Sequence record: MW286157.1
DNA: 64,000 nucleotides
Direction: 5' to 3' (one strand)
From: Escherichia phage vB_EcoM-BECP11
The notes beneath the pieces were generated by a model that was not told where the DNA came from, searched no databases, and saw nothing but the letters and a program-made list of their open reading frames with translations. Shown here piece by piece: positions 29,102 to 37,958 of the stretch. Both the position numbers and the translations under genes were made by a program. Within the stretch, counting starts at the first letter, position 1; each line of letters starts with the position of its first letter.

Positions 29102-29113
29102 TTTCACAAAGTT

Positions 29114-29143
29114 GTTTACATGCTGATGAGGTAGTGATACTAT
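29114..29143 (+). promoter_or_regulatory. T4-type early promoter for ipI
   Basis: TTCACAAAGTTGTTTACA then TGATACTAT -10; -10 lies inside an inverted repeat GATGAGGTA...TACCTCATC. Confidence 0.65.
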
Positions 29144-29173
29144 TACCTCATCAAAATTAATTAGGAAAATAAA

Positions 29174-29458: not shown

Positions 29459-29476
29459 TAAATTTTTCACAAAGTT

Positions 29477-29506
29477 GTTTACATAGGGTTTTAGTTGTGA
29501 TACTAT
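29477..29506 (+). promoter_or_regulatory. T4-type early promoter
   Basis: TTCACAAAGTTGTTTACA ... TGATACTAT, nearly identical to the ipI promoter. Confidence 0.65.
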
Positions 29507-29534
29507 TACCCTATCAACTACTGAGGAGAATAAA

Positions 29535-29720
29535 ATGAAACGTTGTGAATTAATTCGAAATGTTGCTATTGCAATTTCTGCTTCTGCTTTTAGTTTTTCA
29601 ATGTTTGTTGGATTTATATGCGGATTATTAACTACAGCAGAAAATGTATTTTCACTTGTAGTAGCATTTTTAATTGGTTTAATTGCTATCGTTATGGATA
29701 AAATTTCTAAAGGTGAATAG
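29535..29720 (+). CDS. small membrane protein, unknown function
   Basis: 61 aa with two hydrophobic helices, SD GAGGAG. Confidence 0.5.
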   Translation: MKRCELIRNVAIAISASAFSFSMFVGFICGLLTTAENVFSLVVAFLIGLIAIVMDKISKGE

Positions 29721-29721
29721 A

Positions 29722-30102
29722 ATGTATAAAGTGTACGCGGATTATCAGGCTAATCCATCTGAAAAGCCAGATTGCCAAATTGGATGGGCTCATGATACCC
29801 TGCTTGAAGCAGTAGATGCTGCTCAAAAATTAGGATATAAATATGTAGAGATTGTTCAACCGACAGGAAAAGTTATTACTCTTGAAGAGTTCAATAATAT
29901 TAAACCGAACTTTTTACTTTTTGCGGGTGATAATTATTATCCTCGCGGTGGGTATGCTGATTTAATCGCGAAAGCCGCTACTGAAGATGAACTCCGTGAT
30001 ATCATTAAAGAAAATGAGAACAAACCAATGTATGGTTCTAATCGCTTTGATTGGTGGCAAATTGTAAATGCCCACACTCATACTATTGTTGATGAAGGGT
30101 AA
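29722..30102 (+). CDS. hypothetical protein
   Basis: 126 aa from ATG 29722 with SD AGGTGA; track ORF starts upstream. Confidence 0.6.
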   Translation: MYKVYADYQANPSEKPDCQIGWAHDTLLEAVDAAQKLGYKYVEIVQPTGKVITLEEFNNIKPNFLLFAGDNYYPRGGYADLIAKAATEDELRDIIKENENKPMYGSNRFDWWQIVNAHTHTIVDEG

Positions 30103-30489: not shown

Positions 30490-30562
30490 TGGGAATTAGC
30501 CAAGTTGGTAAGGCACTGGATTTTGATTCCAGGATGCAAAGGTTCAAGTCCTTTATTCCCAG
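30490..30562 (+). tRNA. tRNA-Gln (UUG)
   Basis: Hand-folded cloverleaf: acceptor TGGGAAT/ATTCCCA, anticodon loop TTTTGAT, T-loop TTCAAGT; no encoded CCA. Confidence 0.85.
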
Positions 30563-30563
30563 C

Positions 30564-30650
30564 GCGAGAATGGTCAAATTGGTAAAGGCACAGCACTTAA
30601 AATGCTGCGGAATGATTTCCTTGTGGGTTCGAGTCCCACTTCTCGCACCA
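30564..30650 (+). tRNA. tRNA-Leu (UAA)
   Basis: Acceptor GCGAGAA/TTCTCGC, anticodon loop CTTAAAA, long variable arm, encoded CCA. Confidence 0.85.
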
Positions 30651-30655
30651 AATTT

Positions 30656-30729
<74 letters not shown>

Positions 30730-30739
30730 ATTTAATTTA

Positions 30740-30813
30740 CTCCGTGTAGCTCAGTTTGGTAGAGCGCCTGATTTGGGATCAGGAGGTCCAAGGTTCAAAT
30801 CCTTGTATGGAGA
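30740..30813 (+). tRNA. tRNA-Pro (UGG)
   Basis: Anticodon arm CCTGA-TTTGGGA-TCAGG, T-arm CAAGG-TTCAAAT-CCTTG, acceptor with two G-U pairs. Confidence 0.8.
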
Positions 30814-30815
30814 CT

Positions 30816-30905
30816 GGAGGCGTGGCAGAGTGGTTTAATGCACCGGTCTTGAAAACCGGCAGTCGCTCCGGCGACTCATAGGTTCGAATCCTATCGCCTC
30901 CGCCA
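30816..30905 (+). tRNA. tRNA-Ser (UGA)
   Basis: Acceptor GGAGGCG/CGCCTCC, anticodon loop CTTGAAA, long variable arm, T-loop TTCGAAT, CCA. Confidence 0.85.
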
Positions 30906-30910
30906 GTTTT

Positions 30911-30986
30911 GCTGATTTAGCTCAGTAGGTAGAGCACCTCACTTGTAATGAGGATGTCGGCGGTTCGATTCCGTCAATCAGCACCA
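30911..30986 (+). tRNA. tRNA-Thr (UGU)
   Basis: Acceptor GCTGATT/AATCAGC, anticodon arm CCTCA-CTTGTAA-TGAGG, CCA. Confidence 0.85.
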
Positions 30987-30987
30987 A

Positions 30988-31062
30988 GGCCCTGTAGCTG
31001 GAAGGTTCAAGCAAGCGACTCATAATCGCCAGATGGTGGTTCAATTCCACCCAGGGCCACCA
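30988..31062 (+). tRNA. tRNA with CAU anticodon (Ile2 type as in T4, formally could be Met)
   Basis: Acceptor GGCCCTG/CAGGGCC, anticodon loop CTCATAA, T-arm GGTGG-TTCAATT-CCACC, CCA. Confidence 0.75.
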
Positions 31063-31074
31063 AATTATGAATTA

Positions 31075-31161
31075 GGGGAGTTATCCCGTAGAGGTAGCGG
31101 TGTGGACTGTAAATTCATTGTCATTGCGACTCGGGTGGTTCGACTCCATCACTCCCCACCA
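31075..31161 (+). tRNA. tRNA-Tyr (GUA), type II
   Basis: Perfect acceptor GGGGAGT/ACTCCCC, anticodon loop CTGTAAA with U33 and A37, long variable arm with 3 bp stem, CCA. Confidence 0.7.
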
Positions 31162-31165
31162 ATTT

Positions 31166-31240
31166 GGATGTGTAGCTCAATGGCAGAGCGATCGCCTGTT
31201 AAGCGATTGGTTATAGGTTCGAATCCTATCACGTCCGCCA
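31166..31240 (+). tRNA. tRNA-Asn (GUU)
   Basis: D-arm GCTC/GAGC, anticodon arm ATCGC-CTGTTAA-GCGAT, T-arm ATAGG-TTCGAAT-CCTAT, CCA. Confidence 0.8.
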
Positions 31241-31354
31241 AATTTGTGACAACTGTCACATTAATATCTACTTGACGCGATTATAGGGGTTGAACTGATC
31301 ACTCTTCTCTTAATTTCGTGTGAAGACATCATGATTGTTGGAGTAGGTATTAAT

Positions 31355-31430
31355 GTGGCCGTAGTTCAGTTGGTAGAACTCGAGATTGTGATTCTCGTAG
31401 TCATGGGTTCGACTCCCATCGGTCACCCCA
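31355..31430 (+). tRNA. tRNA-His (GUG) with extra 5' G(-1)
   Basis: 8 bp acceptor including G-1 opposite C73, anticodon arm CGAGA-TTGTGAT-TCTCG, T-loop TTCGACT, CCA. Confidence 0.8.
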
Positions 31431-31434
31431 ATTA

Positions 31435-31510
31435 CGGGGCATAGCTCAGAAGGAAGAGCAAGGACCTTCTAAGTCCTGGGTCGTAGGTTCGATCCCTACT
31501 GCCTCGACCA
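31435..31510 (+). tRNA. tRNA-Arg (UCU)
   Basis: D-arm GCTC/GAGC, anticodon arm AGGAC-CTTCTAA-GTCCT, T-loop TTCGATC, CCA. Confidence 0.85.
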
Positions 31511-31528: not shown

Positions 31529-31879
31529 ATGAAAGGTAATGTTTATTTAGTAGTTCATGATTTAACATTCTATTTTAATCATAATGATACTGTTATTTCT
31601 GAACGCGTAATTAATTTGCTTTATCAGCATGCAGATTATGTTTATGTCGAAAACGAATTTGGTCATTGGCAATTTCTCAAAAATCGTTCATTTGGTTTAG
31701 ATGGTTACGAATATTTTGAACGTAAAGACCTTTTAGATAAAATTCCGTTATCTACACAATATCAAAATCACAAGTCTTTATATAAATGCCGTCCAATTCG
31801 AAATGCTGAATCTGCGTATGAAGTAATTGATTTATGGCGTAAACGTCGTGAACAGGTTGATGCTTTAAAAGAATACTAA
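31529..31879 (+). CDS. hypothetical protein
   Basis: 116 aa ORF with SD GAGGAAAA right after tRNA-Arg. Confidence 0.6.
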   Translation: MKGNVYLVVHDLTFYFNHNDTVISERVINLLYQHADYVYVENEFGHWQFLKNRSFGLDGYEYFERKDLLDKIPLSTQYQNHKSLYKCRPIRNAESAYEVIDLWRKRREQVDALKEY

Positions 31880-32186
31880 GAAACCGGGTCGCTACCGGTA
31901 AGTCGTCGGACTGATGTTCCCTGGAGTATAGTTTCCTCCCACAGTTTTACTGTGTTCTGGCTCTTTACTATCACAGCAGAAACGGCGCACCGAATTATCG
32001 ATTCGAGGAAATATCTTTGCCGTAAACCGAGTAGCGTTTTTGACGGAACGTTCGGATATGGTCGAGATATGGCCTTTTAAAAATATTGAGTAGCGTCAAC
32101 TGCTTAATAACCGGGTTCGAATCCCGGCGTTTCGTACAAACACTTGCCTTAGCAGGTGGAACCCCGACAAGGTTGCCGCAAGGCTT
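31880..32186 (+). ncRNA. candidate structured non-coding RNA region (possibly related to the small stable RNAs of the T4 tRNA region)
   Basis: About 300 bp with no credible ORF on either strand, GC-richer than surroundings, contains a T-arm-like hairpin CCGGG-TTCGAAT-CCCGG and ends at a strong terminator. Confidence 0.3.
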
Positions 32187-32215
32187 AGCCCCGACCGAAA
32201 GGTTGGGGCTTTTTA
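32187..32215 (+). terminator. intrinsic terminator, 10 bp stem with GAAA tetraloop
   Basis: AGCCCCGACC-GAAA-GGTTGGGGCT followed by TTTTT. Confidence 0.75.
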
Positions 32216-32260
32216 GTATAAATAAGTATATTAAATCCACGAATTAAAACAGGAAATAAG

Positions 32261-32734
32261 ATGAAATCATATACTCAATTTTTAAATGAAGCGGTGTTAA
32301 ATGAAGCATCTAGCACCGAAATTCAAGCTGTCGCAAAAGCAGCCATTGCAGCGGGTAAATATTCTTACAAAGATGCTTCTGATGAATCGCGATTTCAGTT
32401 CGCACGCGACATGAAAGCGGAAGGATTTACGGGAAATGCAGTTAGTATGGCCTGGAAAAGTTTAGTTGCTACTGGCGCTGCTTTTGCAAAGGCTTCGGGT
32501 AAACCTGCTCCTAAAGCAGATCCTAAAGTCGCACAAGAAAAAAATATCGTTAAAGGAATTATCTCCAAATATGAAGCTATCCTTAAAGAGCTTTTAGTAA
32601 TCAAAACTGAAGGCCAAAAGCTAGCTCGTGCTCATAGCTTTAAAGATAACCCACATGCTCATGACCTAGAGTATGTTGAAGACATCCAAAAAATTATTAA
32701 AGACCGCATTTGGTCTGCTAAACAAATCAAATAA
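32261..32734 (+). CDS. internal-protein-like protein with capsid-targeting sequence
   Basis: 157 aa starting MKSYTQFLNE-AVLNE-A, i.e. the MK-Y-F ten-residue capsid-targeting sequence plus L-x-E gp21 cleavage motifs seen in ipI and the ip gene after e. Confidence 0.65.
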   Translation: MKSYTQFLNEAVLNEASSTEIQAVAKAAIAAGKYSYKDASDESRFQFARDMKAEGFTGNAVSMAWKSLVATGAAFAKASGKPAPKADPKVAQEKNIVKGIISKYEAILKELLVIKTEGQKLARAHSFKDNPHAHDLEYVEDIQKIIKDRIWSAKQIK

Positions 32735-32741
32735 CATTCTT

Positions 32742-32770
32742 AGCCCCGACCAAAAGGTTGGGGCTTTTTG
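32742..32770 (+). terminator. intrinsic terminator, near-duplicate of the one at 32187-32215
   Basis: AGCCCCGACC-AAAA-GGTTGGGGCT followed by TTTTT. Confidence 0.75.
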
Positions 32771-32902
32771 GTATCTAGGCCTTTCCAGGCCTCTCTAGGC
32801 ATCATTTAGTTTCTACCCTTTATAATATATTATCCTATCCTTTGATTTCCCCTCCTTGCCCTAGAATTCCCCAAAACTTTTTAAAAAATTTTTCACAAAA
32901 CT

Positions 32903-32932
32903 GTTTACATCCCTGTTCTTCCATGGTACTAT
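32903..32932 (+). promoter_or_regulatory. T4-type early promoter
   Basis: TTTTTCACAAAACTGTTTACA ... TGGTACTATACAACTATC. Confidence 0.65.
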
Positions 32933-32975
32933 ACAACTATCAACTACTGATACAGAAAACAACTTGGAGAATGAA

Positions 32976-33239
32976 ATGGATAATTACGGCGAACTGTTCA
33001 ACTTCTTTATGAAATGTGTTTCAGAAGATTTTGGTCGTACAGTGAATGATATTAAAGTTATCGGTCCTGATCATCCGATGTTTGAAACTTACGCAGTAAT
33101 GGGTAATGAAGATGGTCAGTGGTATACTGTAAAGGTTGTGATTAACATGTTCACTGCTGAAGGTTATGTTAAACTGTCTTCTAAAGTTTATCATGATAAC
33201 GACGAAATTGCAGAAGAATATTTCAATAATATGAAATAA
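32976..33239 (+). CDS. hypothetical protein
   Basis: 87 aa from ATG 32976, SD GGAGA; track ORF starts at an upstream TTG. Confidence 0.6.
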   Translation: MDNYGELFNFFMKCVSEDFGRTVNDIKVIGPDHPMFETYAVMGNEDGQWYTVKVVINMFTAEGYVKLSSKVYHDNDEIAEEYFNNMK

Positions 33240-33269
33240 GTTTACATAGGCTCATGATTGAGATATTAT
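33240..33269 (+). promoter_or_regulatory. T4-type early promoter
   Basis: GTTTACA then TATTAT inside inverted repeat ATAGGCTCAT...ATGAGCCTAT. Confidence 0.55.
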
Positions 33270-33295
33270 GAGCCTATAATTTGAGGAAAACTGTT

Positions 33296-33814
33296 ATGTC
33301 TCTTTATACCGAACTGAATGAAACTTCCGAAAAATCTTTTGATGGTATCTTATCAATAATGCAAAAGCAGGTATTAGAAGAGCTTAGTGAAGCCGCAAGC
33401 AATGGGTACAAGGCTTGTCGAGTTCAAAGCCCACATCGCCGCATGTATGAACGTCCTCTTATTAATTGGCTAGAAAGCGAAGGTCTTACGGTTAAGATTT
33501 GCCCTGCTAAATTTGATGTCCCGCGTATTCTCAATATTTACTGGGATAAACCGGTTGAGAAAAGTGACACTTGGGTTGTTAATGTAAAAACATGTGATAA
33601 TGGATGCTCACTTGAGGTGTCTGCTGTAATTAAAGGCACTCATGGTGAAAAATCGTGGGGTTGGCCTGGTAAAGATAAAGAAATCGTGTTAAGTGTAAAA
33701 GCTACTAGTATTAGTACTCCTATAGCTAAAAGCATTATCACTGCCGCTGTTGAAGAAGCTGAACGAATTTGTAAAATTAAAAATAGTTTACATCTCTTAA
33801 ATAGCATGATATAA
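33296..33814 (+). CDS. hypothetical protein
   Basis: 172 aa from ATG 33296 with SD GAGGAAAA. Confidence 0.6.
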   Translation: MSLYTELNETSEKSFDGILSIMQKQVLEELSEAASNGYKACRVQSPHRRMYERPLINWLESEGLTVKICPAKFDVPRILNIYWDKPVEKSDTWVVNVKTCDNGCSLEVSAVIKGTHGEKSWGWPGKDKEIVLSVKATSISTPIAKSIITAAVEEAERICKIKNSLHLLNSMI

Positions 33815-33856
33815 TTTTTCTGTGGATTTTAATTTTAATCAACCTAAGGAAATACT

Positions 33857-36728: not shown

Positions 36729-37259
<531 letters not shown>

Positions 37260-37263
37260 AGTT

Positions 37264-37293
37264 GTTTACTTTCTCCTAGAATTGTGATAGTAT
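37264..37293 (+). promoter_or_regulatory. T4-type early promoter
   Basis: GTTGTTTACT ... TGATAGTAT. Confidence 0.6.
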
Positions 37294-37347
37294 ATTCACA
37301 GTTGCTTGAAGAGACAAATTACTAATTAAAATATTTAAAGGAAATAT

Positions 37348-37821
37348 ATGAAAACATATCAAGAATTTATCACTGAAGCAGCTATTAATTCTCAAATTAT
37401 TGCTGAATCTTTTACTGATCTTTTGAAATTTAAAAAAGGTCAAAAAATCACTGCTGTATTGGATGATGGTACAGAAGTTGAGATGGATGTACAGGGATAT
37501 AATTATGCAGTAGATGGAAAATTGTATAATAAATCTCATGCTAAATTTGATTCATTTGACGACTTTGTTAATACAGTTGAAGATGAAAAAACTCGTCGAT
37601 CCATTGCAACTGGTGATGCTAAGGTTCTTATGGCACATGGTCATGAACGCATTCGCGCTAAACAGAATAAAATGGGTGAAGATAATTTCGCATTAGTTGG
37701 TTATCAATCTGGTAAACAAACTTATGGCTATCAACGTACTGCTACCATGTATAATAAAAATGGTAAAATTGCCTTTGTAAATAGTAAAGGTTCTATTCAG
37801 TACGTTAAATCGTTCAAATAA
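37348..37821 (+). CDS. internal protein (ipII/ipIII locus) with capsid-targeting sequence
   Basis: 157 aa starting MKTYQEFITE-AAINSQIIAE-S; sits after e where T4 has ipIII and ipII, but the size differs from both. Confidence 0.75.
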   Translation: MKTYQEFITEAAINSQIIAESFTDLLKFKKGQKITAVLDDGTEVEMDVQGYNYAVDGKLYNKSHAKFDSFDDFVNTVEDEKTRRSIATGDAKVLMAHGHERIRAKQNKMGEDNFALVGYQSGKQTYGYQRTATMYNKNGKIAFVNSKGSIQYVKSFK

Positions 37822-37958
37822 TATGGGAACAGCCTGGACCTCATTTGAGGTATTCCCGCCAACCTGTGATAAGGTCGAGCCAAAGCGCGGTAATGGGTAA
37901 TGCAGGAATGGACAACTCATGTGCCATGGAATGGCCCAAAAACCTTAAGAGAAATAAC

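Follow-up and report, generated by a model that had tools for sequence, protein, structure and literature searches.

The closest described counterparts of the gene analyzed here are the internal proteins (IPs) of the T-even phages. IPs that carry a capsid-targeting sequence (CTS) and are encoded in polymorphic cassettes between conserved regulatory sequences are already known (Repoila et al., 1994, as cited in later work). Among them, Ip1, Ip2 and Ip3, the IPI-III of T4, each inhibit one distinct GmrSD type IV restriction enzyme (PMC12373910). Ip3 is required on ECOR17 and is active in the cytoplasm without its CTS (PMC12373910; Srikant et al., preprint 10.1101/2022.04.14.488369), and no target was identified for Ip4-10 when these were tested by Silas et al. 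(PMC12373910). In IPIII, residues 1-10 are sufficient for targeting to the head, and amber-suppression mapping showed that targeting depends most on positions 4 and 7 and processing on 8 and 10, with gp21 cleaving after the Glu of an L/I-x-E motif (summarized by Kuhn and Thomas, PMC9026906). Here we describe a 157-residue open reading frame (ORF), ORF A, in a 64-kb stretch (64,000 nucleotides, referred to below as the window) of Escherichia phage vB_EcoM-BECP11 (MW286157.1). ORF A probably encodes a previously unnamed internal head protein of the T4 type, which would be injected and which, by analogy with Ip1-3, may neutralize a host function.

ORF A resembles T4 IPI-III in several respects. 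Its N-terminal decapeptide is of the MKT[YF].EF..E type and precedes a gp21 site (L/I-x-E, then A), and like IPI-III it is a small, basic, non-essential protein encoded in a polymorphic cassette of a T-even phage, with ipI and IpIV genes in the same window. Indeed, among close relatives ORF A is absent in several and, in others, stands alone or is accompanied or replaced by a second gene, ORF B. The differences are equally clear. The mature parts of IPI-III share neither sequence nor fold similarity with that of ORF A. ORF A lies between the rnaC terminator and e.8, outside both classical IP loci (57B-trna.4 and e-denV), a position that it also takes in Mosigvirus and Jiaodavirus; every listed tblastn match falls at one place per record, which was the rnaC-e.8 site in every locus opened. 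Whereas ipI is preceded by an early-promoter block, ORF A is preceded by a late-promoter box only. Furthermore, the ORF A family is far more widely conserved than Ip1-3, which inhibit specific GmrSD enzymes. Ip4-Ip10 and later T-even variants (IpIV-VI of PST) are likewise recognized by their conserved leader and also lie between conserved regulatory blocks that have been proposed to mediate shuffling, but they were described at 57B-trna.4 and at e-denV/vs.8. What appears new is the locus and the family, and ORF A itself may be among the ">30 variants" or Ip4-10 of earlier work (Repoila 1994, Comeau 2007).

The leader and coding constraint of ORF A

An earlier reading of the window from its letters alone (the sequence-only reading) had described a 157-residue ORF at 32261-32734 that starts with MKSYTQFLNE-AVLNE-A (hyphens marking possible gp21 cuts), and the ORF is present exactly as noted. 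By sequence motif alone, its leader holds two gp21-type sites, L8-N-E10 and L13-N-E15, each followed by A. It also has Y4 and F7, the targeting positions, which are the same residues in IPIII, as well as L8 and E10, the processing positions, and so fits the IPIII mapping at each of the four critical positions. In six frames of the 64 kb, the strict pattern MK[STA][YF]..[FY][ILVM].E matches twice (at 32261 and 37348; 0 in 200 shuffles), and the looser MK.Y..F adds only ipI (29174) and two matches outside ORFs. The leader motif is therefore confined to three ORF starts, of which the other two belong to known IPs, ipI and IpIV.

The leader had also been proposed to be common to ORF A, ipI and the ip gene after e. 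This holds for residues 1-7 of ipI; the L-x-E of the window ipI leader, MKTYQEFTSTTNASTLTE followed by A, lies at residues 16-18 and not at 8-10. Other known leaders are MKTYQEFIAE (IPII and IPIII), MKTFKEFTST...ITE-A (T4 IPI) and MKTFKEF... (PST IpV and IpVI). Across the family, members at 24-37% identity retain leaders such as MLKFNEFLAE, MINFSDFLNE and MKSFSSFLNE, and the 13-member alignment shows no variation at M1 and F7 and almost none at L8. Retention at this divergence argues that the motif is maintained at the protein level and is not merely hitchhiking with a DNA module. Together, these observations bear out an internal-protein-like leader that is specific to ip genes in the window and conserved across a diverged family. 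In the AlphaFold2 model, described below, the leader is disordered, with a per-residue confidence (pLDDT) <50 for residues 8-14. Predicted cleavage would leave 142-147 residues of 15.5-16 kDa, with a pI of ~9.5 and a net charge of +6 to +7; the mature protein would thus be basic, as are the other IPs in the window. By sequence, the unprocessed N-terminus would give the peptide SYTQFLNEAVLNEASSTEIQAVAK, and the gp21-processed N-termini AVLNEASSTEIQAVAK or ASSTEIQAVAK.

ORF A is a real gene. It was found by tblastn in 511 phage records, in 469 of them at full length, and PHROG 2280 (function unknown) matches its residues 1-157 with E 4.2e-60. Compared with the Mosigvirus orthologue (~76% identity between Tequatrovirus and Mosigvirus), the ratio of nonsynonymous to synonymous rates (dN/dS) is 0.08, with proportions of nonsynonymous (pN) and synonymous (pS) differences of 0.12 and 0.67, the synonymous sites being near saturation. 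Database records call the product "hypothetical" almost everywhere; the sole exception found is a Klebsiella phage UniRef entry, "Internal head protein". An exhaustive profile search of 1.8 billion representatives recovered 13 family members, and as judged from these matches the family has few members, all of them in T4-like phages.

The terminator repeat and states of the locus

Two near-identical terminators had been reported to bracket the ORF, at 32187 and 32742, and both are confirmed: the first reads AGCCCCGACC-GAAA-GGTTGGGGCT-TTTTT, and the second has an AAAA loop. The full repeat spans 36 nt, 34 of which are identical between the copies, and the copies are 555 bp apart. In each, a 10-bp stem that includes 7 G-C pairs carries a tetraloop and is followed by TTTTT. 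The pattern occurs twice in 64 kb with up to three mismatches and in none of 100 shuffles, and the hairpins fold at −20.3 and −19.5 kcal/mol (z −3.9 and −4.3 against shuffled controls). Furthermore, the hairpin is retained through compensatory changes in Mosigvirus and Jiaodavirus. Upstream, the tRNA transcription unit closes with the rnaD/rnaC homologue and has the first hairpin as its terminator. Copy 1 is predicted to be an intrinsic-terminator-like element, and copy 2 is predicted to terminate the ORF A transcript.

The locus occurs in four states: empty, A, B and A+B. T4 lacks ORF A, and its one terminator (70825-70859) aligns to both window copies by blastn; on either side, window 31879-32219 aligns to T4 71168-70825 (90%) and window 32740-33291 to T4 70859-70307. 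The site is empty also in T2, T6, RB7, RB59 and PST. ORF B, which the window lacks, takes up that rnaC-e.8 site in other phages. It encodes 187 residues (RB14ncORF136c), starts with MKTYAEFLTE-A, matches PHROG 2280 (E 1e-53) and was found in 165 phage records, with coordinates L006:636-1199 in RB14 and L007:1263-1826 in DalCa. It stands alone in RB14, P922, G3F7 and ESh27, and downstream of ORF A in DalCa and pSs-1. Sampling the 725 matching records at even intervals gave about 26 loci with A only, 10 with A+B, 5 with B only and 6 empty; the empty state of T4 is thus a minority, and no third alternative cassette was seen at the site besides A and B in the sampled records.

Every junction falls within the terminator hairpin or its T-run. 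After the left flank, the hairpin and TTTTT, the sequence continues as [A/G]GTATAAATA into cassette A, as AGTTTGAATCAC into cassette B or as GGTATCTAGGCC on the e.8 side, and each cassette terminates with a hairpin and then GGGCTTTTTGGTAT. These junction sequences map all the rearrangements to the terminator and its T-run, and recombination within the 36-nt repeat accounts for the presence or absence of ORF A as well as for the A, B and A+B polymorphism. Exchange of a cassette at repeated elements, as the sequence-only reading had suggested, is therefore supported by the four states and by the junctions in the repeat, but insertion is a less likely direction than loss. Indeed, Mosigvirus and Klebsiella Jiaodavirus carry a homologue at the same position, between the tRNA-cluster terminator and the e.x genes, and in Jiaodavirus the hairpin is followed by the same TTTTTAGTATAAATA. 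Because the position is shared by Tequatrovirus, Mosigvirus and Jiaodavirus, T4, T2 and T6 more probably lost the gene; from these comparisons, ORF A is most likely ancestral at the site and would have been removed from the three phages when the two repeat copies recombined.

ORF B (RB14ncORF136c, equivalent to RB69ORF148c/149c) shares with ORF A the locus, PHROG 2280, the type of leader, a similar length, a helical C-terminal domain (hhalign E 5.6e-5) and a terminator of its own that ends in GGGCTTTTTGGTAT. It differs in its N-terminal domain, which cannot be aligned to that of ORF A, and in its hairpin, TCCCTATC...GATAGGGC. PHROG 2280 is also matched by ORF B, the Klebsiella homologue and a distant member. 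Between Tequatrovirus and Mosigvirus, ORF B shows 95-99% identity; this holds also for RB69, in which it is divided into ORF148c and ORF149c. In the pair RB14/ESh27, identity falls from 96% to 61% immediately past the ORF B terminator. This pattern of identity suggests that ORF B was recently exchanged between genera.

The arrangement is reminiscent of the PeSL cassettes of RB49/phi1, PST and nt-1, in which an accessory ORF is likewise bracketed by repeated stem-loop regulatory elements and what sets close relatives apart is precisely the ORF and one such element, which fits recombination between the flanking copies. In contrast to PeSL, the ORF A repeat is a GC-rich intrinsic terminator with a late-promoter box 3′ of it, not a σ70-like early promoter. 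The nearest early-promoter block lies ~125 nt further downstream and on the right side only, and the right copy is followed by non-promoter sequence. The two kinds of cassette are thus analogous in role and not homologous.

Predicted packaging and possible roles of the protein

Together, these features lead to the following model. ORF A would be transcribed only late, from the TATAAATA box after the tRNA/rnaC terminator, with the upstream hairpin blocking read-through into it. MKSYTQFLNE would serve as the CTS that brings the precursor into the prohead scaffolding core, where gp21 would cut after Glu10 and/or Glu15 (L-N-E, before A) and leave a basic, all-helical protein in the head. The mature protein would exit with the DNA at infection and could act before phage gene expression; by analogy with Ip1-3, its likeliest job would be to neutralize a host function that attacks the incoming DNA. 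We consider it likely that the protein is packaged and processed, and predict that it is injected. An anti-defense function, which is argued by analogy, is put forward more tentatively, as something quite possible.

Packaging is supported indirectly, by the leader, by the late promoter and by data on virions of Yersinia phage fD1, whose orthologue g140 is identical to ORF A at 154 of 157 residues and met the strict liquid chromatography-tandem mass spectrometry (LC-MS/MS) threshold for phage-particle-associated proteins in virion preparations (PMC8309999, Table S3). No other virion proteome that includes the ORF A protein was found in the literature.

Several points weigh against this model. 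The fD1 preparations were impure, with 672 host proteins, and 113 of the 277 fD1 phage proteins were flagged, including thymidine kinase (Tk), DenV, NudE and lysozyme (PMC8309999), so that detection of g140 proves expression more than packaging and lends modest support. The TATAAATA box, a perfect match to the T4 late consensus that the sequence-only reading had not mentioned and that overlaps the last bases of repeat copy 1, is by itself at chance level in this AT-rich window (16 observed against 10.4 ± 3.0 expected). We therefore counted it as evidence through its positional conservation only: it follows the terminator in the same register in Tequatrovirus and Jiaodavirus, and Mosigvirus has AATAAATA instead. 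No match to Pfam, NCBIfam or PADLOC profiles, to PDB sequences or to known folds indicates any activity for ORF A. Finally, ORF A is present in most Tequatrovirus and Mosigvirus records and is syntenic in Jiaodavirus, unlike the strain-specific Ip1-3; this breadth and synteny, together with the constrained C-terminal domain described below, fit a conserved role better than an arms-race inhibitor.

The database searches were uniformly uninformative on function. Pfam, NCBIfam and PADLOC profiles gave no match for either ORF A or ORF B, and in the Pfam search ORF A matched neither IPI_T4 (PF11634) nor DUF7412 (PF24183). The PDB sequence profile search returned only noise (E ≥ 0.08). Ferritin-like helical bundles, found by Foldseek against PDB (best E 0.73, TM score <0.3), were discarded as noise, and Foldseek against BFVD retrieved only members of the family itself, including one from Serratia phage PS2. 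The Pfam and Foldseek searches likewise revealed no similarity of ORF A to IPI*.

The principal alternative is that the protein is packaged but acts inside the particle, where it would help to build or size the scaffolding core, or neutralize and organize the packaged DNA, and would have no specific host target. The AlphaFold2 model, built on a 13-sequence alignment with a mean pLDDT of 81, bears on this question. It consists of two helical domains joined by a Pro/Ala/Lys-rich linker, which has no regular secondary structure and varies in length in the family alignment (Table 1). The C-terminal half forms a long helical hairpin as in scaffold-like proteins, and together with the net charge of +6 to +7 and the pI of ~9.5 this would suit a role within the head. 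The two domains evolve at different rates: against Mosigvirus, residues 17-75 of the faster N-terminal domain have pN 0.217 at pS 0.83, and residues 94-157 of the C-terminal domain have pN 0.026 at pS 0.57. Such a low pN at this pS indicates strong purifying selection and not recent transfer, which, like the broad syntenic conservation in three genera in place of the patchy distribution of the target-specific Ip1-3, would be expected of a part of the particle. However, T4, T2, T6 and PST lack ORF A and yet have normal heads, and several viable phages carry truncations that leave the N-terminal domain only; these observations weigh against an essential structural role. In addition, all three characterized T4 IPs are host nuclease inhibitors. 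We therefore regard action confined to the particle as unlikely, and favor an injected protein with a host target.

In the truncated forms, the homologue is shortened just after the N-terminal domain or linker, by an in-frame stop in Klebsiella phage KpV477 (L005:3495-4030) and as 93-111-residue forms elsewhere; P0006, P0008, P0018 and P0070 belong to this group. Either the N-terminal domain is functional by itself, or gene decay is under way in some lineages. Two further variants are chimeric proteins. In P0013 (94 residues, from a 2.9-kb Logan contig), the N-terminal part of the trna.3-like ORF (window 29683-30102) runs into the final 32 residues of ORF A, implying that a natural deletion took out the entire tRNA region. 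P0012 (182 residues), from a Klebsiella phage, has lost an internal segment and carries a read-through tail.

A second alternative is that ORF A encodes a late cytoplasmic protein that is not packaged, its leader resembling those of IPs because a module of ribosome-binding site, start codon and first codons has spread by recombination among small T-even genes. Indeed, the start-codon region is a repeated DNA module (family D2) that is also found on the non-IP gene trna.4 at 29515, and the fD1 proteome is not specific to structural proteins. However, the region is only 68% identical in DNA to the ipI start, the pattern at positions 4, 7, 8 and 10 persists down to 24% identity with other codons and with other residues elsewhere, the trna.4 copy of the module (MKRCELI...) lacks the motif, and the paralogue B retains it. 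We consider this explanation improbable, and considerably more so than action within the particle. The remaining reading, a chance ORF between two terminators with no functional gene, draws only on the universal annotation as a hypothetical protein and is refuted by the dN/dS of 0.08 at saturating synonymous divergence, the 469 full-length copies, the PHROG 2280 match (E 4e-60), the fD1 peptides and the confident AlphaFold2 model.

Surroundings of the cassette and wider implications

The window is a segment of a Tequatrovirus (T4-like) genome, 99.9% identical to Phage NBEco003 over the test region. Coordinates of the features are collected in Table 1.

Table 1. Features of the ORF A cassette and its surroundings in the 64-kb window
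Feature	Position	Strand	Remarks
57B, then ipI, then trna.4/.3/.2 ORFs	29174 (ipI)	+	ipI: Pfam IPI_T4 (PF11634), E 1.3e-51
Eleven tRNAs	30490-31510	+	followed by 116-residue ORF
rnaD/rnaC homologue (species 2 + species 1 stable RNAs)	31879-32183	+	blastn to T4
Repeat copy 1 (T1)	32184-32219	+	hairpin 32187-32210, GAAA loop, U-run 32211-32215; left cassette boundary
T4 late-promoter consensus TATAAATA	32217-32224	+	perfect match; ends 36 nt before ORF A ATG
Shine-Dalgarno AGGAA	32251-32255	+	5 nt before ORF A ATG
ORF A, 157 residues	32261-32734	+	ATG start; PHROG 2280 member; predicted internal head protein precursor
Leader, residues 1-15	32261-32305	+	CTS-like decapeptide MKSYTQFLNE, then AVLNE
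N-terminal helical domain, residues 16-75	32306-32485	+	helices 18-30, 41-53, 59-71 (AlphaFold2)
Pro/Ala/Lys-rich linker, residues 76-87	32486-32521	+	residues 81-90 mean pLDDT 55
C-terminal helical domain, residues 88-157	32522-32731	+	long helix 88-124, then 131-135, 140-154 (AlphaFold2)
Repeat copy 2 (T2)	32739-32774	+	hairpin 32742-32765, AAAA loop, then U-run; right cassette boundary
Early-promoter block, 53 nt (TTTCACAAA..GTTTACAT..GGTACTAT)	32891-32943	+	upstream of e.8; promoter-like site 32904-32932
e.8, then e.x genes, nudE, lysozyme e	32976-33239 (e.8); 36765 (e)	+	
ip gene, 100% identical to PST IpIV	37348	+	Pfam DUF7412 (PF24183), E 5.7e-96

Upstream of the cassette, the window has 11 tRNAs against the 8 of T4, the extra ones being Met, Tyr, Asn and His, and the T4 homing endonuclease segB is absent. 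The 116-residue ORF (31529-31879; PHROG 3355, function unknown) separates tRNA-Arg from the rnaD homologue. In T4 these two adjoin directly, with rnaD annotated at 71053-71171 and rnaC at 70908-71046. Phage G4507 has a tRNA-Lys(ttt) annotation on its rnaC homologue (L002:3644-3737, approximately window 32044-32137); at the matching window position no tRNA is called by either ARAGORN or Rfam, and Rfam has no match in the cassette, its tRNAs lying upstream only.

Downstream, the position of T4 e.7 holds an unrelated 177-residue ORF (33281-33814; PHROG 6869, function unknown), and window 33292-33829 has no T4 match by blastn. This is a further replacement within the same hyperplastic stretch. IpIV is the sole ip gene in the interval from lysozyme e to the vs.8 homologue (window 37260-37850), where T4 has ipIII, ipII and denV, and tblastn found no homologue of denV, ipII or ipIII anywhere in the window. 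The 53-nt early-promoter block upstream of e.8 recurs (TTTCACAAAGTTGTTTACAT...GATACTAT...TCAA) on both sides of ipI, at 29102-29154 and 29465-29517, with partial copies at 33240, before the ORF at 33281, and at 37258, before IpIV; these blocks are conserved IP-flanking elements known from the literature.

A broader and more doubtful interpretation, to which we give less weight than to an anti-defense function, is that rnaC-e.8 represents a third ip locus, overlooked because it is deleted in T4, T2 and T6, and that the A and B forms of PHROG 2280 constitute a conserved class of injected proteins with a role beyond GmrSD. If so, this class, with its near-invariant C-terminal domain, would have been kept in at least three genera, possibly with different DNA modifications. 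Its members might, for example, guard or escort the entering DNA end, or hit a conserved host function, and the terminator hairpin would be the exchange point that moves cassettes within and between genera.

With 511 records holding form A and 165 holding form B, this is the most widespread candidate Ip in the T4-like phages of E. coli, Shigella, Yersinia and Klebsiella, and its absence from three model phages makes gain-of-function tests simple. The finding is relevant to host-range prediction for therapeutic T4-like phages, and the locus is a clean case, found in nature, of a cassette gained and lost through its terminators.

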